The position numbers were made by a program, and so were the translations under genes. This document shows positions 9,000 to 62,299 of a stretch of DNA of 64,000 nt, piece by piece. Origin of the DNA: a virus (Duplodnaviria; Caudoviricetes); the IMG/VR virus record IMGVR_UViG_3300025732_000016. One strand, given 5' to 3'. Every line of letters begins with the position of its first letter. Position 1 is the stretch's first letter. Below the pieces are notes generated by a model. The model did not search any database. It had not been told where the DNA came from and saw only the letters and a list, made by a program, of their open reading frames with translations.

Positions 9000-10242
9000 G
9001 GGCGCCTCCCGTATTTCTAACTAGCTGTCTGAACGCTTCATACGTTGAGAGGGCAATTTTGTAAGAGTCACCTGGGTACGCCCTACACCCAATCATCGTG
9101 ATTCCCTTTCTCCTTGACACGAGGAAGCATCTCATGCCATGGTCAAATCTTTCTTTCACTATCTCTCTTGTATCGCCGAACTCTTCACCGATGCAGACAG
9201 AAACTCTCCTCGAAGAGATTCTCGAGATGCGATTCTGCAACATTCGCAAGATATCAGGATCGCTGAACTGTGAGATCTCACCCCGCAGCTTTCTCAATAA
9301 CTCATCTCGCCCAGCAGTATCTCTCAAGTGAACCTTGAGCTTACCGTTCTCTACGACAACATCGTGACAGTTAGAGTCGTCCTCGTGGGAGATGAGGTTG
9401 ACAGTCTCCTGCCCAATGACCGTGCTCAAGTCTGAGATCGTAAATTCGTCCTCGACCGAGGTTCCGGGAGTGAGGGGCACGATGTCAAAAACTCCCCTCT
9501 GGTTGTTGGCGAAGATCGTGCTGGCCACCTCTGAAGAGAACGCTCTCGCAACGAGCAGGACTCGAGAATTGTCAAGTGAACACTTCTCGAGGAATGTGTT
9601 CACTTGACCGACGCTCTCGATGACCCCGTCAAAAACGACTATTTGTCTGGAAGTTAGGGATCGAGAGGTGTGAAAGCTCGGAGAGACTATCACTGGATAG
9701 GACGATGACTCGTCAACAGAGATGTGTGTAATGCCTCCGACTGAGACTGAGACATTCCCTGTGGCTCCCGCCTGCCCGATGCTGTCGAGTAACAGGCTTC
9801 TCACCGTCTCGTCTTGGACATCGTCGATGAGAGCCGGGAGGTCGCTCTCCAACATCGTCCTTGTACCCGATGCCACCAGTTTTTCGCCTGATAGAAGACG
9901 CAAGAAGAGGTATGAAGAGGCGGGTGAAGCCTGCTCAGCCCTGTACGCCGACAACAGGACCAATGAGCGAGCGATTCTTTCAATGTCACTCTTGGACTTC
10001 CAAGACGACAGGACCCTGAGAGAGTCTGCGGGTGACCCTCCCAGTGCCCTGTCCTTGAAGACCTCGACTATCGAAGAACCGATAGTCTCGATAGTCCCTT
10101 GAGCTATCTTCCTCGCCGCGGCAAGGACAGACTCACCGTCACCAGTGAGTCGTCTAGCTGTCTCTCCAGAGGTTGTTGGCGGCAAAGGTGATAATCTCCT
10201 CAGCAGATTCTGGTGTGTAGCCGTAGTCTTGTACAAGCGCAT
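8923..10242 (-). CDS. Divergent GroEL/Cpn60-like protein (start uncertain)
   Basis: IVVFDGVIESVGQVNTFLE...VLLVARAFSSEVASTIFANNQRGVFDIVPLTPG aligns by eye with the GroEL apical domain; GDGTT motif absent. Confidence 0.6.
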   Translation of the reverse strand: MRLYKTTATHQNLLRRLSPLPPTTSGETARRLTGDGESVLAAARKIAQGTIETIGSSIVEVFKDRALGGSPADSLRVLSSWKSKSDIERIARSLVLLSAYRAEQASPASSYLFLRLLSGEKLVASGTRTMLESDLPALIDDVQDETVRSLLLDSIGQAGATGNVSVSVGGITHISVDESSSYPVIVSPSFHTSRSLTSRQIVVFDGVIESVGQVNTFLEKCSLDNSRVLLVARAFSSEVASTIFANNQRGVFDIVPLTPGTSVEDEFTISDLSTVIGQETVNLISHEDDSNCHDVVVENGKLKVHLRDTAGRDELLRKLRGEISQFSDPDILRMLQNRISRISSRRVSVCIGEEFGDTREIVKERFDHGMRCFLVSRRKGITMIGCRAYPGDSYKIALSTYEAFRQLVRNTGGALVIDKKVEVAKRRDGKNRRARVSHS

Positions 10243-12079
10243 TGACCATTTCTGAGTACTTCTTCTGCTGCTCGTTGTCTCTGCTCTTTGACTTCGTGAC
10301 AATTCGCGCCATGTCCTTCACTGAGGAGATGAGGTAGCCCTCGATCGCCTCACGGAGGGGCTCGTAGGAGCGGTAGTCGACCTTCGTTCCGCGCCGAATC
10401 TTCGCGAACATGTAGGCCGTCACGTCAGCTCGGAACCCGTCCTTCATCGAGCCCGTGATCCCGATCTGCTCCTCGAGAGCCTTCATGAACTTCTCGTCAG
10501 GCTCTCTCTCCTCGGAGGTGACCCTGTCCTTCATCTTCTGTCGAGTCGTGAAGGCCTCTGCGTTGTCGAGGTAGTTGTCGAAGAGAGACTGGGCCTGCTC
10601 CTCGTAGGCGGTGACGAACGCCTTTGCGATCTCTCCCTCGAGGATCTTCAGGTACTCCTCACGGATGACCTTCTGGAGGATCTCGAGATAGTTCTTCTTC
10701 TTCTCCTCGTCGACAACCTGCTCCTTCACCTGCTTGATGAGAGCTTCGACGACTCTCATCGGAGTGATGAAACCCTTGTCAGAGTCGGTGAGTGCAGAGT
10801 CAATTGCCTTCGTGATGAATCGGGTAGAGATTCCCTCCATACCCTCGTGCTTTGCCTCATCACGGAGGTCAGTGATGTCGACCTTGCGCGTCCTGCCCTT
10901 CTCGACAATCTCCTGGCCGTCGTAGATCTTCATCTTGGTGAGGAGGTCACACTTCTGGGAAGGCTTGAGGCGGCTCATCACCGAGAACATTGCCGCGACC
11001 TTGATCGTATGGGGAGCGAGGTGATACTTGAAGTCGGACTTGCGAAGCATCTTCTCGTAGATCTTCATCTCCTGCGTGAGCTCCAGGACGTATGGAACCT
11101 CGATCTTCACGACGCGATCGAGGATGGCCTCGTTCGTGTGCTCAGACTTGAAGCGATTCCACTCTGCCTCGTTGCAGTGTGAGAGGATGACACCGTCGAA
11201 GTAGAGCATCGAGTTCTTGCCCGGTGTCGGAACATTCTTCTCCTGGGTCGCAGTGAGGATCGTGTGGAGGAACTCGATCTCGTTCTTGAAGATCTCGACA
11301 AATTCCACCACACCGCGGTTACCGACGTTGAATGCACCGTTGAGGTTCAGGACTCGGGGATCGTCCTCGGAGAACTTGTCCAGCTTTGAGATGTCCTCTG
11401 AGCCGATGAGGGCCGAAACGTCCTGAGAGTTGGCATCCATGGGAGGGACGACCGCGATACCCCTGCGCGCTCTCTGCGAGAAGGATGAGCGGACCACAGG
11501 GAACTTCTCGTACTCGCCCTTGAACTCTTCCATGAGCCTGTATCGACAGACCGGACAGAGGTCTCCCTCGATGTGGACACCGAGGATCTTCTCGAACTCC
11601 TCCCTCAATGACCTCGGAAGGAGGTGAAGCGGCTCCTCGCGAACTGGGCAGCCATCGAGATGGTAGACGGGCTCTGCAGCCTTCTCAAGAGCCTTCTTCA
11701 CCGCGTCGGCAAGTGCGCTCTTTCCTGATCCGACAGGTCCCATGAGAAGCAGGACCTGCCTGCTTTCCTCACCCTTCAGGGCAGCGGACTTCAGGAATCG
11801 CATGAGCTTTGCAATGACGCGCTCATGGCCGTAGAATTCGTCCCTGAAGTAGCTGTAGGTCTTTAGCTTGTCGCTGCCGAACAGCTTTCGGCAGCGAGGA
11901 TCAGTCTCATCCATTGTGCTCACACCGTATGACTCTACGGCGTCAACGAGTCTCCTCGCGGCGAGCTTTGTCACGTCAGGATCTTCCTTGACGAGCTTCA
12001 GGTAGTCGATGAAACTACCCTTCCAAGAGTCCTTCTGCGACTCAACCCTTTGCTTCTTAATGATGTCGAGAAAATCCAC
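10154..12079 (-). CDS. prkA: PrkA/YeaG-family AAA+ protein
   Basis: Walker A GPVGSGKS; GCPVREEPL, GNRGVVEFVEIFK and EAILDR motifs; GTG start after GGAGG. Confidence 0.9.
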   Translation of the reverse strand: MDFLDIIKKQRVESQKDSWKGSFIDYLKLVKEDPDVTKLAARRLVDAVESYGVSTMDETDPRCRKLFGSDKLKTYSYFRDEFYGHERVIAKLMRFLKSAALKGEESRQVLLLMGPVGSGKSALADAVKKALEKAAEPVYHLDGCPVREEPLHLLPRSLREEFEKILGVHIEGDLCPVCRYRLMEEFKGEYEKFPVVRSSFSQRARRGIAVVPPMDANSQDVSALIGSEDISKLDKFSEDDPRVLNLNGAFNVGNRGVVEFVEIFKNEIEFLHTILTATQEKNVPTPGKNSMLYFDGVILSHCNEAEWNRFKSEHTNEAILDRVVKIEVPYVLELTQEMKIYEKMLRKSDFKYHLAPHTIKVAAMFSVMSRLKPSQKCDLLTKMKIYDGQEIVEKGRTRKVDITDLRDEAKHEGMEGISTRFITKAIDSALTDSDKGFITPMRVVEALIKQVKEQVVDEEKKKNYLEILQKVIREEYLKILEGEIAKAFVTAYEEQAQSLFDNYLDNAEAFTTRQKMKDRVTSEEREPDEKFMKALEEQIGITGSMKDGFRADVTAYMFAKIRRGTKVDYRSYEPLREAIEGYLISSVKDMARIVTKSKSRDNEQQKKYSEMVNALVQDYGYTPESAEEIITFAANNLWRDS

Positions 12080-12087
12080 GTTCCCTC

Positions 12088-13413
12088 CTACGAGATCTCA
12101 AATTCTTCATTTTCTACGTCAGTGAACAGCTTGACGGGACCGTGCCAGATGTTCCTGATGAGCTTGACGCAGTTGTCTGCGTAATCGAGCTCGAGGTCCC
12201 TTCCGTCATGTTCATGCCGCAGTTCTAATGTATTGTCCTTTGCCACGTGATCGACGTATATCGTCGGAATCATATTGCCGGCAATGCTCTGCAGGAGGGC
12301 GGCCCTCACCTCCTGCCAGCTTTCGTCGTCTTCGACAATGTCGTCAACTGTCCAATCAGGGTTCTTCTTGCCCTTCGGACTGAAGGTGAAGAGGTTGAGC
12401 TCTCTCGCCTTCTCCTCGGTGAGGTACTGCATGATGAAGTTCTCGTCGTTGCAGACCTCTCTCGCAAGGAAGCACTCCTCTATGCCGAATCTCTTCTCGA
12501 TGTCCTTGAAGATTTCAAAACCGAGGTGGTATGGGTTGATCTTGAGACCCCACGGTCGAAGGACAGCGTTGTGAGTCTTGAGGAAAGGGAGGTGATGCTC
12601 ATCAGCGAGCTCAAGGTCATGGAGAATTCTGTAGTGCCAGAAGCTCGCCCACCCCTCATTCATAACCTTTGTCCTGATCTGCGGCCAGAAGTAGAGAGAC
12701 TCGTCATGGACTATCGAGATGATGTCCCGCTGCCAATCTGTGAGCTTGTGATTGTTGTCAAGGACAAACTGGAGGATGTCATACTCAGGCTCAAGCGGGA
12801 GGTCATCGATATTGAAGTCCTTCCACTCTCCCTTCTCGTCGTTCTTGATGAGGTCGATGTACTTCTTACGAAGCTCTCTCTCGGACGGTCTCGTCCTGCC
12901 GCGACGATCGGTCTGGTAAGTGAATGCGTGGCAGGCATCGATGATCTTCTCCACGGCCTCAATCCCTATCGTCGGGTCCTCGATGTAGGCCTTAATCCGC
13001 TTTCCGGCATTCCTGAACCTCATCGTGACGGTCGCGGCGTCAGTGTCCTTGAACGTCCGATTGTTCTTGAAGAAGTCCGAGTGGCCGACGCAGTGCGCCA
13101 TGATGAGAATCTGGAGGTACAGCGGGTTCTCCAGCATCAGGTATGCGATTGACGGATCAGAGTTGATGATGAGCTCATACGGAAGGCCCTCAGCGCCCGC
13201 GTTGTACATGAAGTGCGTCCTCTCGAACGTCTTTCCGTACGACCAGTGTGCATAGTGAGAGGGCATCCCGTGGTAAGCCATGTGACCGATCATCTCACGG
13301 TAGTCACAGGTCTCATAGGCTATCGGGTACCAGTCGAGGCCGTGCTTTCTCGCGATCTCGCAGATCTTCTCGTCCCATTCCTCGAGATCACTCAAGTTGT
13401 AGTCACCCATCAC
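12088..13413 (-). CDS. spoVR: SpoVR/YcgB-family protein
   Basis: GMPSHYAHWSYGK, YELIINSDP, AHCVGHSDFFKNN and KVMNEGWASFWH motifs. Confidence 0.9.
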   Translation of the reverse strand: MMGDYNLSDLEEWDEKICEIARKHGLDWYPIAYETCDYREMIGHMAYHGMPSHYAHWSYGKTFERTHFMYNAGAEGLPYELIINSDPSIAYLMLENPLYLQILIMAHCVGHSDFFKNNRTFKDTDAATVTMRFRNAGKRIKAYIEDPTIGIEAVEKIIDACHAFTYQTDRRGRTRPSERELRKKYIDLIKNDEKGEWKDFNIDDLPLEPEYDILQFVLDNNHKLTDWQRDIISIVHDESLYFWPQIRTKVMNEGWASFWHYRILHDLELADEHHLPFLKTHNAVLRPWGLKINPYHLGFEIFKDIEKRFGIEECFLAREVCNDENFIMQYLTEEKARELNLFTFSPKGKKNPDWTVDDIVEDDESWQEVRAALLQSIAGNMIPTIYVDHVAKDNTLELRHEHDGRDLELDYADNCVKLIRNIWHGPVKLFTDVENEEFEIS

Positions 13414-44356: not shown

Positions 44357-45026
44357 TCCTTGTTTCATCAAATCCGGTGAGATTGTCACAATAGACGACC
44401 CACGTTTAAGTGACACTGATTGCGTGATAGAGGCGGGCGTCATCATTCGTCCGCCCGCAGACGAGACAACAGTCAAGGAAGTCGAGAAACATGTTGAGGA
44501 GAAGACAGAGGTCAAGGAGATAAAGCACACTGTCAAGAAGAGGGTGGAACTACCCTTAGAACCAGAGCCTCCTCCCGCTGTAGTTGAGACTCCTCCAGTC
44601 AAGACTGTTGTTACAAATCCGACAACAGTCTCTACAGCAGCAACAGCGGTTCCTGCCCCTGCTCCAAAGGAAGAAATTTACTTTGGGATGTCACCTGAAA
44701 TGGCGACTGTTGCAGCAGTTGGCACAATCGCTGCAGTGGGTGGTGCGGTCGCAGCTTCAACGATGGGAGGTTTCAGTGCTGTTCAAGCAAAGCTCGCTTC
44801 GATCTTTGGTTCAAAAGCTGCTGCAACTGCTACAGCGGCGGTCGCAGTGACGGCGGGAACCATCGCCGCCGTGAAGGCCCTCGAGGGAAAGGTGGGCAAG
44901 TTCGAGGAGGACATGAAGAAGGCGAAGGAGGAGGTCGGTGGTGCAGCCTCTTCAATCGACCGGATCGATGCCCTACTGAGCCGGCTTGGCGGCGACAACG
45001 ACGACGAACTCGACCCTTCGGTTTAG
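44349..45026 (+). CDS. Membrane protein with Pro/Thr-rich linker and Ala-rich TM hairpin
   Basis: ATG 44349 overlaps the upstream gene; two Ala/Gly-rich hydrophobic segments. Confidence 0.55.
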   Translation: MADPCFIKSGEIVTIDDPRLSDTDCVIEAGVIIRPPADETTVKEVEKHVEEKTEVKEIKHTVKKRVELPLEPEPPPAVVETPPVKTVVTNPTTVSTAATAVPAPAPKEEIYFGMSPEMATVAAVGTIAAVGGAVAASTMGGFSAVQAKLASIFGSKAAATATAAVAVTAGTIAAVKALEGKVGKFEEDMKKAKEEVGGAASSIDRIDALLSRLGGDNDDELDPSV

Positions 45027-48000
45027 GGCCTGCCCCTCGGGAGTCCCGGAGGTGTCGAGCGGTGCCGTGTCTCCCTTACCCTCGATGGAGATGCGCCCCG
45101 CATCGACACCCTTGCCGATGAGGTAGTCAGCAGCGACCTTCGCTCTTTCCCGTGAGAGTTCCTCAGGGTGCTTGAACTCCATTTCCGAGGAGTCCGCGTA
45201 TCCGACGACCTTCACGCCGTATCCCGGTCGAAGATTAAGGACCGTCCAGACACCGTCGAGTGTCGCCCGGGCCTTAGTGTTGAGCTTCGTGTCGCCTGGA
45301 AGGAAACCGATTCCGACCTCCTGCTTCGGAGGTAAGGTGACATCAGGCTTCGCCGGGACTACTATCACGATGGGCTGGAGCGGTTCTTCCTGAACCTTAC
45401 ACTCACATGCGGTCTGGGGCGAAACTTCGGGAGTAGCGTCTTCCTCTTCCTCATCTGAGGGACCGAAAGTAATCTGCATTGTTGCCTGCCAATCTCCATC
45501 GCCAGGTTGACGAATGACACCCTTGCTCAGTGCACCGCCAATCGAGAAGTTGCCGACAGTCCACTCCAGTGAAGACCCTATGAAGAGAGATGAGACAGGC
45601 GACTCTCCAAGGTTGTGAAACGCCTGCGAGTCTACTCCAATCGTGAAGTCGCCGACTGAATAAGATCCTGCCGCCGTGATGTAGGGCCCGGATCCAAGCT
45701 CGTATCCTTCGAGATCGACCTTCGGGTAGACCATGAAACCAGCCCCGAGGAGCCCCCCGACGTTACCGAACTGGGCCTCGGCTCCTGCTTCGAGTGTCGT
45801 TGCCCACCCAGGATGTGAGACACCGAGTCCTACTCCGGTGGGAGCAACCAACGACACATCGCCGTAGGCTCCCAGGCCATCGACACTGAAGGCTTTCGAG
45901 TTCACGCGGAGACCGCCCCAGACATCACCGAGGCGAACTACTCCATCGTTAGCGATGGATGCTGGCACGCCGAAGTCGACAGAGAAGTGCTCGAAAGTGT
46001 AACGATTGGTCGTCCAGCCCCAGTAGACGTCATCGATGACCACGACCTCGTCACCCTGCGGGTTGATGTAGGAGAGGGGATCGGTGACCACACCACCGAC
46101 GATGGCAGTCTCATCTCCGAGGAACCTCGACTCACCCCTCGGTGGGAGGGGCACCACACTCATCTCGGGGACCTCACCCCCAGAAGCTCCCATCAGGAGC
46201 GGGAATCCGAGGAGGAAAGAGAAGAGGCCCCTCCGCCTTGAGGCGAGCACCGCGCCGAGGGTCATGAGAATGAGGCTTCCGCTTCCACCGCCGCCGGTCG
46301 TGGAGCAACCGCCGCCCGGGACATATGACCCCTTCGGAGCGGGATTCTCGTCCGTGTCATCGACCGGTGGGGCGCCAGTCTCGTCGGCACTATCAACGGC
46401 TGAATCGGAACCGGTATCGATCGAGGTATCGTGGCCACTGTCGCCCGTGTCGATCACCACACCGCTGTCACCAGAATCTCCTGTATCGATTGGCCTGTCA
46501 TCGACAGGATCACATGCATCACCGACTCCGTCTCCATCAACGTCGGACTGGTCATTGGAGAGACCTGGACAGTTGTCGGTCACATCGTCAGCCCCGTCTC
46601 CGTCGGCGTCTGGATCGCAGATATCACCAAGACCGTCTCCGTCGATGTCTGCTTGGTCGGAGTTGAAGGCATCCGAGCAGTTGTCAGATAGACCGCAGAG
46701 CCCGTCCTCATCAGCGTCGTTTGTCGCATCATCCGGACAGGCATCGACATCACCACAGATTCCGTCGGCATCGATGTCGTTGTCAGCATCGAACTCGCAT
46801 GGATCGGTGTCGGCACATGCTCCGTCACCATCGACATCGTCGCTTGGATCGAGCGGGCAGACGTCCAGTGATTCACAGGCTCCGTCGCCGTCCCGATCAT
46901 CGAGGGAGTCATTGGGGCAGATGTCCTCGTCACCGCAGGTCCCGTCACCGTCGATGTCGTTCAGCTCATCGAGCGGGCAGGTGTCACAGTCATCTGAGAG
47001 GCCGTCCTCGTCCGAATCTACCGTGTCATCAGCGCCCGGGCAGATATCTGCAGAATCGCAGGATCCGTCACCGTCGGAATCATCGGCTGAGTCCGCCGGG
47101 CAGGCATCGCAACCATTCGGGATGCCATCACTGTCAGTATCGAGTGTGTCATCAGCGCCCGGGCAGATATCGTCGGAGTCGCATGAACCATCCGCATCAC
47201 TGTCACCGAGTGCATCGAATGGGCAGGTGTCGCAACCGTCGGGGGTGTAGTCACCATCAGTGTCGATGCGGTCATCTGAGCCGGGGCAGATGTCGTTCTC
47301 AGCACAGACGCCATCGGAATCGGAGTCATTGTCTGCGTCATACTTGCAGGCATCGCAACCATTCGGGATGCCATCTGAGTCGGAATCCACCAGGTCACTG
47401 TAGCCCTCGCAGACATCCACATCTCCGCAGACTCCGTCACCGTCAGCGTCATCGTATGGGTCTGACGGGCAAGAGTCGCAGCCATCTGGCGTGTAATCAG
47501 CGTCCGCATCAGCGAGGTCATCGTATCCTTCGCAGGCATCAACATCACCGCAGACACCGTCGGCATCTGCGTCGTCATACGGATCGGATGGGCAGGAATC
47601 GGAGGAGTCTGGGATTCCGTCGCCGTCCGCATCCGGTTCAACAGGGGCTTCGGCGCAGTCCGTTGCAGCGGAGACCGCAGTCTCGTCAAGGGTGTAGATG
47701 ACCCTGAATGTCTCGGACTGCCCAGGAGCCATATCACCGAGGCTCACCGCAAGCGAGATCGCCGCATCATCGGAGACCGAAGATCCCACTGTGGAGTAGA
47801 ATCCTGAGCCGTTCCAGATGTCCGAGGCATCGGTGTTGAAGAACCCACCATGGGTGACCCTTGCACGACTGTCGGAGGCGATGAGGTAGAGATCCGCGCC
47901 ATCTCCCCCGGTCGCCCTAACTGAGGCAAGATCGGTGGATGAGTCAGGTTGCGAGATGATGGTGTTCGTGGTCGAGTAGTCGTATGTCGTCATCACAGAG

Positions 48001-48554
48001 TTGTCAGGATCGACGTTCCTGAACCAGTAGACGTCCGACAGGGTCGATGAGCCGTTGTTGGTGAGGGTGACAGTCATCACGACGTAGACCTCGTCATTGA
48101 CGACACCGTACTGGGTCTCTACCCCGAGGTCTCCCACCGCGCCGGTCCATGTCACCGCACCGCCGAGGTTTCCGCAGATATCGACCTCACATGCGGGGTC
48201 TCCGAGGGAGCCTGCGATGCCATTCGTCCAGCCGTTTGTGTTGTCGTATGCGACCCCGTTGAACTCAACGCCCCAGCCCTCGAGAGGAGAGCCGGGTGAG
48301 AAGAAGTCACCGTAGTAGCTCGACCAGCCGTTCCGCTGCGGGTTCGCCACGAAACCGAGTTGGCCTGTGTTCGACCGGTAGTGCCATCCAGAAGGGTAAC
48401 CGCCCTCTCCGAAAGCGCCCTCGGAGCCGATGCCGAACTCAACGTATTCGTTACGAATAAAAGCTGATGAACCAGGATCATTGACTTCACAAAAACCTGA
48501 TGCCTGGGCCAGCGTTGGCGTGAGGAACAAAAGTGATAGAAGTATTTTACGCAT
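44973..48554 (-). CDS. Large surface protein: signal peptide + globular domain + TSP3-like Cys/Asp repeats + internal MYXO-CTERM-like motif + beta-barrel-like region + OmpA C-terminal domain
   Basis: Many DxDxDGxxDxxDxCP repeats; GGGCSTTGGGGSGSLILMTLGAVLASRRR; OmpA motifs VVGYADS, LSRERAKVA and NRRVEF. Confidence 0.8.
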   Translation of the reverse strand: MRKILLSLLFLTPTLAQASGFCEVNDPGSSAFIRNEYVEFGIGSEGAFGEGGYPSGWHYRSNTGQLGFVANPQRNGWSSYYGDFFSPGSPLEGWGVEFNGVAYDNTNGWTNGIAGSLGDPACEVDICGNLGGAVTWTGAVGDLGVETQYGVVNDEVYVVMTVTLTNNGSSTLSDVYWFRNVDPDNSVMTTYDYSTTNTIISQPDSSTDLASVRATGGDGADLYLIASDSRARVTHGGFFNTDASDIWNGSGFYSTVGSSVSDDAAISLAVSLGDMAPGQSETFRVIYTLDETAVSAATDCAEAPVEPDADGDGIPDSSDSCPSDPYDDADADGVCGDVDACEGYDDLADADADYTPDGCDSCPSDPYDDADGDGVCGDVDVCEGYSDLVDSDSDGIPNGCDACKYDADNDSDSDGVCAENDICPGSDDRIDTDGDYTPDGCDTCPFDALGDSDADGSCDSDDICPGADDTLDTDSDGIPNGCDACPADSADDSDGDGSCDSADICPGADDTVDSDEDGLSDDCDTCPLDELNDIDGDGTCGDEDICPNDSLDDRDGDGACESLDVCPLDPSDDVDGDGACADTDPCEFDADNDIDADGICGDVDACPDDATNDADEDGLCGLSDNCSDAFNSDQADIDGDGLGDICDPDADGDGADDVTDNCPGLSNDQSDVDGDGVGDACDPVDDRPIDTGDSGDSGVVIDTGDSGHDTSIDTGSDSAVDSADETGAPPVDDTDENPAPKGSYVPGGGCSTTGGGGSGSLILMTLGAVLASRRRGLFSFLLGFPLLMGASGGEVPEMSVVPLPPRGESRFLGDETAIVGGVVTDPLSYINPQGDEVVVIDDVYWGWTTNRYTFEHFSVDFGVPASIANDGVVRLGDVWGGLRVNSKAFSVDGLGAYGDVSLVAPTGVGLGVSHPGWATTLEAGAEAQFGNVGGLLGAGFMVYPKVDLEGYELGSGPYITAAGSYSVGDFTIGVDSQAFHNLGESPVSSLFIGSSLEWTVGNFSIGGALSKGVIRQPGDGDWQATMQITFGPSDEEEEDATPEVSPQTACECKVQEEPLQPIVIVVPAKPDVTLPPKQEVGIGFLPGDTKLNTKARATLDGVWTVLNLRPGYGVKVVGYADSSEMEFKHPEELSRERAKVAADYLIGKGVDAGRISIEGKGDTAPLDTSGTPEGQALNRRVEFVVVVAAKPAQ

Positions 48555-48600
48555 ACCTCTATCTATGTTATTCGCGCGTAGAGACTGACGAAAATTCAGA

Positions 48601-48891
48601 TTAAGAGCTGACGGCCTCGACAAAGCGAGAGTCTACCAGAAGACGACCTGCCTCTGACATGCACCAGTAGTACACTCGATTCTCTATCTTGTTCTCAGTG
48701 AGGGTCACCGCGGGCGACTCGACTCTCTCTACGACGAGAGCATTGATGTTTGCGACAATCTTCTTCTTACCCTTCAACTTGAGAGTTCCCTCCCTGGTGT
48801 TCTCTACGCTTGACCAGCCGTAGGGAGGTTCAATGCCTTCACAGTCCCAGGGCACGATGCGCACAATGTCACCATTCTCAAACTTACTCAC
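48601..48891 (-). CDS. Hypothetical SH3-like protein
   Basis: FENGDIVRI; GTGA/ATGA coupling. Confidence 0.55.
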   Translation of the reverse strand: MSKFENGDIVRIVPWDCEGIEPPYGWSSVENTREGTLKLKGKKKIVANINALVVERVESPAVTLTENKIENRVYYWCMSEAGRLLVDSRFVEAVSS

Positions 48892-51298: not shown

Positions 51299-51560
51299 CT
51301 ACTGCGATCTCCCTGCCGTCCTGGAAGACGATCCAGCACTTCGATATCCATTTCTCAGTGTACTTCATCGAATCAGACTTTACAAGCAGGAGCACGTGCG
51401 AGCCGACCTCGATCTCGATTCTCTCCCACACGGGAGATCCGAGAAAGGGCGGATCCTGCTGCCAGATGTGGGCGACCACGTGAGTACCAGGAAGGGCGCG
51501 ACCATCGTAGAGGTGATCACGACACACGACCACGGCGAGATCGCCCGGCCGCAGCTCACC
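51240..51560 (-). CDS. Hypothetical SH3-like protein (start uncertain)
   Basis: LRPGDLAVV...CWIVFQDG. Confidence 0.4.
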   Translation of the reverse strand, partial: GELRPGDLAVVVCRDHLYDGRALPGTHVVAHIWQQDPPFLGSPVWERIEIEVGSHVLLLVKSDSMKYTEKWISKCWIVFQDGREIAVDEKNLDHVGSPRGSTASVE

Positions 51561-51981
51561 ACTCTTCGCCGAGTCCAACCCAGTCCCTGTACTTTTCCTC
51601 ACCACCGCGGGTCTTCCAGTCAGAGTCGATGGTAAGCTTTGAGCTGATGCCGCCGCGTGGGTTGAAGACCATGACGATACGTAGGCGATTGGGCTCGTAT
51701 ACCGCCATGAGGTCATCGTAGATGACATTCGCGAGGCGCTCGTATGAGATGATCTTGTTCCTGAACTGGTGGAGGTAGAACTTGAAGGACTTGAGCTCCA
51801 CGACTTTCTCGTGTGGATAGATCGTCACGAAGAGGTCGGCAAAGTCTGGCTGGTCCTTCACTCCGATGAAGGTCACCTCGGGTGACTTGATCTTGATCTC
51901 GTAGTCCCGGTCAGTCGGATTGGGAATCGACTTCAGGATCGTCGGGTCGCTCCACACTTTCATACGTTCTCCACTACTCAT
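51556..51981 (-). CDS. queF: QueF-like T-fold protein lacking the catalytic Cys
   Basis: QPDF, VELKSFKFYL, SYE and FNPRGGI; no Cys in the 141-aa sequence. Confidence 0.75.
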   Translation of the reverse strand: MSSGERMKVWSDPTILKSIPNPTDRDYEIKIKSPEVTFIGVKDQPDFADLFVTIYPHEKVVELKSFKFYLHQFRNKIISYERLANVIYDDLMAVYEPNRLRIVMVFNPRGGISSKLTIDSDWKTRGGEEKYRDWVGLGEEW

Positions 51982-59543: not shown

Positions 59544-60530
59544 TTAGTATCTATCAACCTCTTGAGAGCGAGCCAACGCAATCTCGAGGTCATTGGCCAC
59601 CTTCTGGGCGACGTACTTGTCGACGTGTGGACAGGACCTGATCGCATCGATCGCCTGCTGGGCAATGGGCACTATCATCGTGACACTGTAACCCGGCCTC
59701 TCCCGACCCTTCTCGATCATCTCCATCGCCTCGAACGCTAAGACTCGAGCGTCAGAGTCCTCTGGACAGCCCGCTTCCTCGAGATCCATGTCCGCAGTCT
59801 CAAGGGCAGTGATGAACTCTGTCGTCTGGAGCTGCTCGAGGTCCCTCCCGGCGACCATCTCACCGGCTTCGGAAATGGAGCGTCTCCGACGCCGAGACTC
59901 GACTGTCCCCCTCGAATCGAGTATCGTGAGGACGCGACCCGTCGTCATCTTACCCCGAGCCCAGTCCTCGAACACTTTCCTGAAGAGGTACCGCTGCTCG
60001 TCAAGCTCTCTCTTCCAGATGTCCTTTGTCTCGGGTGAGAGGGTCCTCTCAAGCTCGTCAAGCTTCCCGAGGACCTTACTCTTCAGGTTCTCGAAAGCCT
60101 TTCCGATAGGGTGGTTCGGGTCACGAGCGTAGTCAGAGCCAGGGTCCATGCTCGCATGACTCCTCTGCGCCTGCTTGTAGTTCTCCCAGACCATCCGGTA
60201 CTCTGGGAGAGTGTGAAGCATACCGAAGAAAGAGTGATAACGATCGATGATCTTGTCGTCGCCTGTCCTCTCAAGACGCTGCGTTGTCGTGGGACCGAAC
60301 ATATCAGCAAGAACAGTCATCAGGCCTTTAATGGCATTACCCGACATCGTCGCATGGATGAGACCCCACTCCCGAATGAGCTCTCTCCTGATGATTGAGC
60401 GCAGCGCGGCCTCACCGATATCGAGAGTCTTTGGGTAGCCCTTTTCTCCCGGACGAGCCGGACGCTCTCCGCGCTTTCTTTTAGCGCGGATGTTGTGCCA
60501 GAGTCCCTTATTTTTCTTTGCTTCGTTCAT
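59544..60530 (-). CDS. Hypothetical protein with basic N-terminal module and internal tag
   Basis: GLWHNIRAKRKRGERPARPGEKGYP followed by EAALRSIIRRELIRE. Confidence 0.6.
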   Translation of the reverse strand: MNEAKKNKGLWHNIRAKRKRGERPARPGEKGYPKTLDIGEAALRSIIRRELIREWGLIHATMSGNAIKGLMTVLADMFGPTTTQRLERTGDDKIIDRYHSFFGMLHTLPEYRMVWENYKQAQRSHASMDPGSDYARDPNHPIGKAFENLKSKVLGKLDELERTLSPETKDIWKRELDEQRYLFRKVFEDWARGKMTTGRVLTILDSRGTVESRRRRRSISEAGEMVAGRDLEQLQTTEFITALETADMDLEEAGCPEDSDARVLAFEAMEMIEKGRERPGYSVTMIVPIAQQAIDAIRSCPHVDKYVAQKVANDLEIALARSQEVDRY

Positions 60531-61468
60531 CTCTTTATCCCCGCGAGGTAGCTCCACCTCTCCATGATCATGTCGTCCTCGAGTCTTCTGTTTTCAGAAA
60601 TTCCACGAGGGTCAAGGTCCTCATCGGAGCCCTCATATGACTTGTTCGGAAACTCTGGGCTCGCTTCATCGTGAGCAAACTCACCAGGACCGTAGATGTG
60701 AAGTTCCGAAGGTACCTTCGATGCCACCGCGGCTTCGACCTCTTTCGTGTTCTTTTCCAGGTCGTCGTAGAAATGGACTTCTTCAGGAGAGCCGCCGGGT
60801 TCACTCAAGTACTTCTTGATGATTGCGATACCCTTGTTCTGACCAGTGACCCCCATCACCCCGTCAGTGGGTTTTGCTCCCAGTCTCGAAAGAAACTGCT
60901 CCATGTCCTGGGAGTTAGTGGCGGGCACGGGATTTCCGTGAAAGTCGGTGCCGACACCGTCAGCCTTCCTCGCAGTGATGACTATCGTGTCAGACCCCTG
61001 GGCGTTTGCTCGTCTCAGCTTGTTGACAGTCGGCTCGATGGGCTGGGTGTTTTCCGTGTCGGTGCCCGATGAAGGAGTGAAGTCGATGAGTATCGTCTCT
61101 CCTGGCTGGTTGACCTTGTCCGCGAAACCTGTGGTCACTCCCTGTTTGGCAGGCGGGAAAGCTTTCTGGACCCTGCCCAGGCCGGACGAGTTGAGGTACA
61201 CCGCCATCCCGTTTTCTCTCTCAGGGATCGGTACGATACCTGGTGGGAGGATTGCGCTCATGGGGACCCCGAGGGAAGAGAGCCACTGCTTGACATCGGC
61301 TTCTGTCTTGTGAGCGGGAGAACCGTCATTGTAGAGCATCACGCCGTTCGCGTTGACCGTGAGACCGAGAGTGTCGTCAAAGTCGAAGACATGCACCTGC
61401 TTGTCAGGCGGTGCGTCTCCCGGTATTGCGTCCTCGAAGAGGATGTCTACAAGCTTCCTGCGTTTCAT
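60527..61468 (-). CDS. HAD-superfamily phosphatase-like protein
   Basis: FDFDDTL, ITAR, NKG and FYDD; terminal MKRRKLVDILFE and ERWSYLAGI helices. Confidence 0.7.
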   Translation of the reverse strand: MKRRKLVDILFEDAIPGDAPPDKQVHVFDFDDTLGLTVNANGVMLYNDGSPAHKTEADVKQWLSSLGVPMSAILPPGIVPIPERENGMAVYLNSSGLGRVQKAFPPAKQGVTTGFADKVNQPGETILIDFTPSSGTDTENTQPIEPTVNKLRRANAQGSDTIVITARKADGVGTDFHGNPVPATNSQDMEQFLSRLGAKPTDGVMGVTGQNKGIAIIKKYLSEPGGSPEEVHFYDDLEKNTKEVEAAVASKVPSELHIYGPGEFAHDEASPEFPNKSYEGSDEDLDPRGISENRRLEDDMIMERWSYLAGIKR

Positions 61469-61680
61469 CTTGTCGTTCCCACTCTTCCGATCTTGCCGTC
61501 GGAAAGGATCTTCTTCACATCGTTCGCCAAGTCCTGCACTCCCTGCTTGAAGGGATCGATGAATACATATGCAGCTGCGACGATCGCGATGACAATCACG
61601 CTGATGAGGAGCATGTACTCTACAGTTGACTGACCCTCTTCCTCGCGGAGAAGCTGCTTTGCTGTCTGCAAAAACATCAC
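61465..61680 (-). CDS. flp: Flp/Tad (type IVc) prepilin
   Basis: EEEG|QSTVEY cleavage motif followed by a hydrophobic helix. Confidence 0.85.
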   Translation of the reverse strand: MMFLQTAKQLLREEEGQSTVEYMLLISVIVIAIVAAAYVFIDPFKQGVQDLANDVKKILSDGKIGRVGTTR

Positions 61681-61940
61681 TTCACTTCGTCGGTTGACTG
61701 GTCAATCTCTTCGTTCCAGTCTGTTCGAAGCTTGATGAGAGGGTTGAAGTTCGCCTTCTTCCTCTCGAGAACAAGAGCAGACTGCGGCTTTTGCAGGACG
61801 CCCTCGATCTCCAGGCCCTCAAAGTCAATCTCAGTCTTCTGCTTGTAAGTGATCTTACGGTCTTCCTCTTCGTCACCGGCTGAAGCGTGACCGGGCAGAA
61901 GAGTCATAGAGAGGATGAGCGCTAGCTTCAAGTACTTCAT
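61677..61940 (-). CDS. cglF: Gliding-motility protein CglF/GltF homologue
   Basis: Signal peptide; YKQKTEIDF...IEGVLQKP...RKK..F..LIKLR..W..EI.QS matches my recollection of the CglF pattern; needs an HMM check. Confidence 0.7.
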   Translation of the reverse strand: MKYLKLALILSMTLLPGHASAGDEEEDRKITYKQKTEIDFEGLEIEGVLQKPQSALVLERKKANFNPLIKLRTDWNEEIDQSTDEVK

Positions 61941-62299
61941 TTTGTGCTCCCAGCCCTTATGTATTCACAGACCTGAGCAAGGACTTCAAGAGCGCAGAGC
62001 TTGTCCCCGTCGGCATCGTCAGAGACACGAAGAGCGAAGAAGTTTCTCTCTTGGTAGGGACTGCCGAGGTGCGCACCGTTCTCAGAGATGAACCAAGTTT
62101 CGCCGTCAGGGACTCCTGCTTCGACGGCGAGACGGCTAGCCTCTCGCATGATGTAGAGAGGATTGTACGGGATCTCTCCGCGGATGAGATGCATTCGCTC
62201 GCTACCGTGGGTGAGCTTCTCCCCACGGTGATTCATTCGTCGTCGAGAATCTCCGTCGATTCGTCGGAGTACTTCCCAGTATTTCTCGTTCGTGATCAC
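61937..62299 (-). CDS. Hypothetical protein
   Basis: GTGA-coupled start at 62299. Confidence 0.5.
   Translation of the reverse strand: MITNEKYWEVLRRIDGDSRRRMNHRGEKLTHGSERMHLIRGEIPYNPLYIMREASRLAVEAGVPDGETWFISENGAHLGSPYQERNFFALRVSDDADGDKLCALEVLAQVCEYIRAGSTK

Follow-up and report, generated by a model that had tools for sequence, protein, structure and literature searches.

A 64,000-nucleotide stretch of the IMG/VR virus record IMGVR_UViG_3300025732_000016 (the window, always meant at its full length) carries on its minus strand two small adjoining genes for envelope proteins. The first open reading frame (ORF), ORF A (61677..61940), encodes an 87-residue protein of the GltF/CglF family as a solitary phage copy, and the second, ORF B (61465..61677), encodes a Flp-type prepilin of 70 residues when read from its ATG. 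CglF and GltF are two names for one protein (PMC4488436); in Myxococcus xanthus it has 89 residues and a signal peptide, is needed for gliding and is found at focal-adhesion clusters, and it has been known only from Myxococcales and Bdellovibrionales (PMC3169522). A first-pass annotation of the window had proposed an exported CglF-like protein here, which was borne out by a near full-length match of ORF A to the NCBIfam model NF033764 (CglF; E value 2.3e-15, 56.4 bits, model positions 9-87 of 88) and by an N-terminal Sec signal peptide. As read from the sequence, the signal peptide spans residues 1-21 (61878..61940), with a lysine-rich n-region, a hydrophobic core and a predicted cleavage site (ASA|G) after residue 21, and its residues 2-14 form a helix in the monomer model. 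The protein has no cysteine, and hence no lipobox, and no other domain, in keeping with the size and signal expected of GltF. Its score lies below the equivalog cut-off of NF033764 (56.4 versus 90 bits); however, a bacterial gene located between gltE and gltG in one metagenome-assembled genome (MAG; locus L013) also scored just 56.3 bits, which indicates that the cut-off is tuned to Myxococcus-like sequences.

A scan covering one genome per prokaryote species identified relatives of ORF A in 56 MAG loci at 33-75% identity, the closest of which, at 62-75% amino acid identity, are genes lying between gltE and gltG. These MAGs are mostly from lakes and are labelled Myxococcota, Deltaproteobacteria or "proteobacterium", with a few plainly wrong labels (Klebsiella, Rickettsiales). 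Locus L013 encodes, in order, GltC, a GltD-like protein of 1065 residues with tetratricopeptide repeats (TPR), GltE, CglF, GltG and CglE/GltH. Proteins of the gltC-D-E-F-G-H set flank the homologue in 55 of the 56 MAG loci versus none of 68 viral loci, and ORF A itself does not lie between gltE and gltG. The lone exception among the MAG loci, L008 (JBBAUR010000108.1, 8.9 kb, labelled "Bdellovibrionota"), has no glt neighbours and nests among the phage copies; it probably represents a piece of phage DNA that was binned with a MAG by mistake, and on both grounds it was rejected as the nearest host. The relevant hosts are thus uncultured freshwater Myxococcota MAGs and not Myxococcus or Bdellovibrio. 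On this sequence evidence, ORF A is a true GltF/CglF-family homologue from the host lineage. Several further observations were made on the bacterial loci. MAGs labelled Klebsiella pneumoniae, Enterobacterales or Rickettsiales (L018, L026, L027, L039-L061 and others) carry full gltC-H clusters, and their NCBI labels look wrong. In some host loci a second, more divergent GltF-like ORF lies directly upstream of gltF as a tandem paralog (L024 7406-7723, L033 7150-7752, L038 3208-3525), and several host genomes hold an additional distant GltF copy elsewhere, possibly part of an Nfs-like set.

The phage origin of the window, also proposed in the first-pass annotation, was confirmed by PHROG matches to PhoH, a helicase, an ATP-dependent ligase, a clamp-loader-like ATPase and structural/tail-fibre proteins. 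No match to the window was obtained among 50,697 deposited phage genomes by megablast (5 kb) or by tblastn with both proteins. CheckV estimates for related phage records imply genomes of ~200-340 kb, a pilin protein identical to ORF B is also encoded on a metagenome contig of 208,047 bp, and two freshwater metagenome runs contain DNA nearly identical to this stretch of the window. The window belongs to a jumbo phage without a cultured relative. Phage GltF is widespread, with at least 649 distinct relatives in metagenomes and 61 further GltF loci in IMG/VR. All five long GltF contexts inspected were large phage contigs, on which tRNA synthetases, T4-type RNA ligase and topoisomerase II are also encoded, and neither GltG nor GltC was found in five near-complete GltF-bearing jumbo phages (187-317 kb). 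One of these five is clearly related to the phage of the window. Because three others share none of the three window core proteins tested (the helicase, the ligase and a conserved protein of 641 residues), GltF is present in at least two phage lineages. In a poorly resolved tree built from 65 alignment columns, the phage and bacterial labels require five changes, one of which is L008, and the window's clade (22 members) adjoins the freshwater host clade. Between phage copies of GltF the ratio of nonsynonymous to synonymous substitution rates (dN/dS) is 0.04-0.12, with saturated synonymous sites.

The first-pass annotation had also recognized a Flp prepilin with the motif G|QSTVEY in ORF B. This motif was confirmed, and the homology extends to a pilin of the host Tad locus. 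The leader comprises residues 1-15 (61633..61677) and ends in Gly15 (G15|QSTVEY); it is followed by a hydrophobic helix of ~22 residues reaching to about residue 39, which is the architecture of a prepilin. Residues G15, Q16 and E20 are invariant in the phage protein, its host ortholog and the paralogs of the host Tad locus. Matches to Pfam were weak: Flp1_like reached an E value of 0.0036 and 17.2 bits versus a cut-off of 33.5, and the DUF4244 and Class III signal matches were likewise weak. A profile comparison against both families, suggested as a check in the first-pass annotation, gave the near full-length match to CglF and left the Pfam Flp models below threshold. A sequence search of the PDB with the pilin profile returned chance matches only. 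ORF B has 572 relatives; the best 120 listed are 85-100% identical, and their Joint Genome Institute (JGI) product name is "Flp pilus assembly pilin Flp".

An ortholog of ORF B with 73-87% identity is present in 18 of 31 host relatives, in the same MAGs that hold the closest GltF, and these host relatives usually also carry two weaker pilin paralogs. The ortholog sits on contigs of 64-73% G+C in a conserved synteny of aldehyde dehydrogenase, pilin and a convergent metallophosphoesterase gene, and is a stable chromosomal orphan, apart from the host Tad locus. One of the weaker paralogs (L138:6249-6437) aligns with ORF B from end to end at 37% identity and heads a Tad locus with the order flp-like, A24 peptidase, flp, RcpC/CpaB, secretin, TadZ-TadA fusion and TadB. 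This locus (L138, G001:C19, 5369-11859) has two further peculiarities, in that its TadZ-like ParA/MinD domain is fused to the TadA/CpaF ATPase in a protein of 731 residues and its two Flp-like genes flank the A24 peptidase. The phage, in turn, does not encode ORF B with Tad assembly genes, as none lie in the window. Two related phage records, one of which is 96% complete, were searched for an A24 peptidase and yielded none, so the phage prepilin would depend on the peptidase of the host. Going by its motif and homology, ORF B is a Flp-type prepilin from the host lineage. A different possibility is that ORF B is a small membrane peptide that works for the phage, for example in timing lysis or remodelling membranes, and that its Flp look is mere ancestry. 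The absence of Tad genes from the phage, the sub-threshold Pfam scores and the orphan position of the host ortholog are in line with this, yet it is improbable given the 73-87% identity to a chromosomal host gene with an invariant cleavage motif, the end-to-end alignment with the pilin heading the host Tad locus, and the conservation of the whole mature part instead of the helix alone (dN/dS 0.03-0.06 between phage copies, with dS saturated).

The selection data also bear on whether the two genes have any phage role at all. Recently captured host DNA, carried as neutral passengers, would be host-derived and still 72-80% identical to the host at the DNA level, as both genes are. This is scarcely credible, however, as hundreds of distinct phage variants exist, both genes occur in several phage clades, their G+C content has shifted to the 55% of the phage, and the saturated synonymous sites combined with dN/dS values of 0.03-0.12 exclude neutrality.

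The host was approached by a DNA search of the last 20 kb of the window against 61 host relatives, in which the best matches fell exactly on both genes (pilin up to 80% and GltF 71-74% nucleotide identity). The host is probably an uncultured freshwater or pelagic Myxococcota MAG lineage. No other Glt or Tad genes had been noted in the window by the first-pass annotation, and the present searches agree: among the six-frame ORFs of the window, host GltF and host Tad-locus Flp matched only ORF A and ORF B, and no match was found to host GltC, D, E, G, H, RcpC, secretin, TadZ/A or TadB. Another of its proposals, that GltF and pilin form a coupled module, failed, because the arrangement of the two genes varies and their distributions are independent. 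Across 15 related phage loci the pilin gene lies downstream with an overlap in seven, directly upstream in two and 0.5-4.7 kb away in six; other GltF phages have no pilin in their flanks, and searches with ORF B found no such pilin in the five near-complete GltF jumbo phages. In bacteria gltF and the pilin gene are unlinked, with GltF present in 28 and the pilin in 18 of the 31 host relatives. Two RNA libraries from different studies gave a weak hint that both genes are transcribed. From the 2.1-kb stretch they contain nothing but two contigs, one of 235 nt that matches 61709-61943 (ORF A) without a difference and one of 216 nt that maps to 61427-61630 (ORF B). These amount to one Logan contig per gene from runs that were found using this very stretch, DNA carry-over is possible, and such contigs cannot show strand, level or timing.

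Structure modelling was used to ask how phage GltF relates to its presumed partners. As a monomer the phage protein was modelled by AlphaFold as largely unfolded with low confidence (pLDDT 67, pTM 0.20), with helices at residues 55-86. An AlphaFold study of the M. xanthus machine likewise describes GltF as mostly disordered, bridging GltC and GltG and touching GltD, with its C-terminal helix in a crevice of GltC and an added parallel strand on the TonB-like C-terminal domain of GltG (PMC11761067). When mature phage GltF was modelled together with GltC and the C-terminal part of GltG from MAG locus L013, the complex scored 0.75 versus 0.43 for the best of three controls. In the calibration of the tool, 51 of the 78 solved complexes attain the mark that was used, as do 2 of the 108 mismatched pairs; for this three-chain job that calibration is valid only roughly. 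Separate runs shared at least 49% of their contacts, and the pLDDT of the partners was at least 50. In the model, the conserved strand segment of GltF (residues 34-47, QKTEIDFEGLEIEG; 61800..61841) is placed on GltG residues 598-613 in the TonB-like domain, and the C-terminal helical segment (residues 66-87; 61680..61745) is placed in the TPR crevice of GltC (residues 249-402), the contacts of lowest error being those of GltF residues 75 and 79 with GltC 283-334. Phage GltF is thus predicted to bridge both partners just as the published Myxococcus model places GltF.

Docking of a disordered protein by strand addition on a TonB-like domain, as modelled here, also resembles the TonB/Tol-box mimics used by colicins and some phages, and the virion might then use a GltF-like peptide to grasp GltG or GltC during entry. 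We regard this as very improbable. The cleavable Sec signal predicted from the sequence would direct export from the cytoplasm of the infected cell instead of packaging, the protein is a free chain of 87 residues without fusion to a structural gene, and the neighbours of GltF are small ORFs of early type, close to replication genes.

Comparison of 52 distinct bacterial with 50 distinct phage sequences revealed which residues the phages retain. Thirteen positions invariant in the hosts (Y32, K35, T36, E37, I38, D39, F40, E41, G47, K51, P52, F65 and N66) are kept in at least 92% of the phage sequences, including those of the strand segment (34-47). Glu48, by contrast, is kept in 34% of the distinct phage sequences and is otherwise replaced by T, I, V, S and others. 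When all loci are counted, every one of the 55 in-cluster bacterial copies has Glu at position 48, and 48 of 70 phage copies have another residue there; on the tree this takes no fewer than seven changes, each of them on a viral branch. Two further positions invariant in the hosts vary in the helical segment: M79 is changed to Ile at least eight times on the tree, and F75 is Trp throughout the clade of the window. The window copy combines all three changes, with Val at codon 48 (61797..61799), W75 and I79, and keeps the other 18 positions that are invariant in bacteria.

The retained residues could mean that the phage merely supplies spare parts. Host expression would stop during infection and the phage would resupply two small, consumable or short-lived subunits, keeping the gliding-type machine and the Tad pili at work, for example while a predatory or surface-attached host feeds until lysis. 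Much of the evidence is compatible with such resupply, including the signal peptide, both modelled interfaces and the 13 host-invariant residues kept in GltF, the leader, Gly, Glu5 and Tyr6 retained in the prepilin, the strong purifying selection, the consumable nature of any pilin, and the precedent of cyanophage psbA. A replacement part should nevertheless keep Glu48, which is lost in 48 of 70 phage copies through at least seven changes; the GltF linker is the only glt subunit ever carried, and the pilin copied is the orphan and not the one in the Tad locus. On balance, resupply appears less likely than an altered mimic, though plausible.

An altered mimic was preferred over a spare part because the docking residues are kept while Glu48, invariant in the in-cluster bacterial copies, is repeatedly lost. 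Tentatively, and at somewhat below an even chance, we favor the reading that the phage deploys a binding-competent but altered GltF mimic together with a hijacked pilin, which would give it control over the surface of the infected cell. This builds on the homology and host origin of the genes, the solitary state of GltF, the purifying selection and the lost glutamate, all of which the data show, and on the docking to GltC and GltG as modelled. Both host-derived envelope proteins would be made in the infected cell and exported there. Phage GltF would be secreted to the periplasm and dock as host GltF does, its short strand pairing with the TonB-like C-terminal domain of GltG and its C-terminal helix lying in the TPR crevice of GltC. 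In that position it would connect the motor side of a Glt/Nfs-type trans-envelope machine, at the inner membrane, with the platform at the outer membrane. We infer that the altered GltF may compete with the host linker or, in excess, uncouple it, and that the machine would be reprogrammed and not merely replenished. The prepilin may be a substrate of a TadV-type host peptidase and may then join the Tad pilus pathway of the host as a subunit that is altered or surplus. Such surface control would probably benefit the phage through motility arrest, or through receptor masking against superinfection. The suggestion in the first-pass annotation that the phage provides decoy or replacement subunits for two host machines is still the best frame, and the model docks phage GltF on host GltC and GltG; the phage pilin is the ortholog of an orphan host pilin and not of the Tad-locus pilin. 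Effects on movement, superinfection or predation, which were raised in the same place, may occur, while none of the present results points to the links drawn there to TraAB outer-membrane exchange and the Kil apparatus.

A more specific scenario can be put forward, which we consider possible but doubtful. Several unrelated lineages of Myxococcota-infecting jumbo phages would each have acquired, independently, the GltF linker, which is the smallest subunit in the trans-envelope Glt/Nfs motor of the host. Loss of the otherwise invariant glutamate would have turned it into a blocker that still docks but breaks the coupling between outer-membrane platform and inner-membrane motor, and one lineage would pair this blocker with a hijacked Flp pilin directed at Tad pili.

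Several results weigh against an altered mimic with a hijacked pilin. The score of the complex model speaks for likeness to the GltF family and not for binding in the cell, and the control that retained GltG still reached 0.43. Residue 48 lies outside the confident contacts of the model, the changes at positions 75 (F to W) and 79 (M to I) are conservative, and the tree on which the changes were counted is poorly resolved and built from 65 columns that include the counted positions. Whether the effect is interference or support is judged from a single lost residue and by analogy. On the pilin side, Pfam Flp_Fap (PF04964) gave no match to ORF B, and the host ortholog of the phage pilin is an orphan gene. 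The host assignment, finally, rests on shared genes only. No link to the host by prophage or by a spacer of clustered regularly interspaced short palindromic repeats (CRISPR) was found; a CRISPR-type search of 20 kb of the window against the 61 host relatives returned 35-nt matches in a DNA methyltransferase motif, without flanking repeats. The G+C content also differs between phage (55%) and host (64-73%).

The two genes are part of a tightly packed row. At their junction (GTGATG, 61675..61680) the GltF stop codon TGA overlaps the pilin start, by 1 nt if the pilin starts at ATG and by 4 nt if it starts at GTG. The 4-nt GTGA overlap described in the first-pass annotation is possible with the alternative GTG start (61465-61680, 71 residues), while gene callers chose the ATG start with its 1-nt overlap (TGATG), which is also present in phage locus L004. 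Upstream, an ORF of 117 residues for which no family was found (61937..62290, minus strand) overlaps the GltF start by ATGA, and downstream, a DUF2608/HAD-like ORF of 313 residues (60527..61468, minus strand; PF11019, 27.6 bits) overlaps the pilin stop by ATGA; both stand outside the function proposed here. As the flanking ORFs are overlapped in the same way, the overlap is the usual packing of the phage and not special to the GltF/pilin pair. Four successive genes are linked by ATGA or TGATG start-stop overlaps in this region (60527-62290, minus strand). A scan for promoters and terminators around both genes revealed nothing above chance level, and PHROGs contains no family for ORF A or ORF B.

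Elsewhere on the minus strand of the window, an ORF of 1216 residues (44973-48623) contains thrombospondin-type-3 repeats like those of the MYXO-CTERM cohesion protein MtsC (68 bits) and has an OmpA-like peptidoglycan-binding C-terminus. Its repeat DNA matches host-relative genomes at 65-70%, and it is a third host-flavoured envelope protein of the phage. A further ORF of 141 residues (51556-51981, minus strand) shares 68-70% nucleotide identity with three host-relative genomes; it is QueF-like by eye and possibly another host-derived gene. Two large ORFs at 10154-13413 (minus strand) gave very strong matches to PHROGs of unknown function (phrog_22605, 4e-141; phrog_35217, 5e-95), and one of them encodes the 641-residue conserved protein, whose counterparts in the related jumbo phage G037 and in G036 show 70% and 35% identity, respectively.

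Both protein families are known, as is phage tampering with host pili and receptors; a literature search turned up no description of a gliding-machine subunit or Flp pilin encoded by a phage. Phage GltF resembles GltF of M. xanthus (CglF, MXAN_4868; its paralog NfsF belongs to the spore-coat machine) in size (87 versus 89 residues), signal peptide and disordered monomer, and in the same modelled bridge between GltC crevice and GltG strand (PMC11761067). It differs in being solitary, in scoring 56 bits against a 90-bit cut-off, and in having Val48 for Glu and W75 and I79 for Phe and Met. The host cluster, a single locus in C-D-E-F-G-H order, could serve gliding or an Nfs-like task. ORF B shares with Flp/Tad pilins, such as Caulobacter PilA, Aggregatibacter Flp1 and the Flp-like pilins of the Myxococcus Kil system, a short leader ending in Gly, the G/XXXXEY motif, a single hydrophobic helix and a mature size of ~55 residues; unlike them, it is phage-encoded, has no Pfam Flp_Fap match and has an orphan as its host ortholog.

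Among viral proteins, D1, encoded by cyanophage psbA, offers a parallel for both GltF and the pilin, as a host-derived gene that is under purifying selection in many phages and supplies one part of a large host machine. Here, however, the targets are a motility-type envelope machine and a pilus and not metabolism, and the loss of a host-invariant residue argues against simple replacement. Tip of phage D3112, Aqs1 of DMS3, Llp of T5 and Cor are likewise small phage proteins that act on host surface machines, and their usual pay-off is superinfection exclusion. Those proteins originated in phages and bind to an ATPase or receptor, whereas the proteins described here are copies of the machine's own subunits.

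No essential part of the myxobacterial gliding machine is less well understood than GltF, and hundreds of natural phage variants that keep the docking residues and drop one invariant glutamate indicate which residues are there for binding and which for function. Both genes also provide a host link between widespread uncultured freshwater jumbo phages and pelagic Myxococcota MAGs, and they suggest that copied subunits of host machines allow phages to manipulate the surface behaviour of the host. If phage GltF does act as a blocker, it would represent a new means by which a virus can turn off, or lock, a machine for bacterial motility or surface transport, and its gene would be a direct sequence marker tying uncultured giant phages to Myxococcota hosts.

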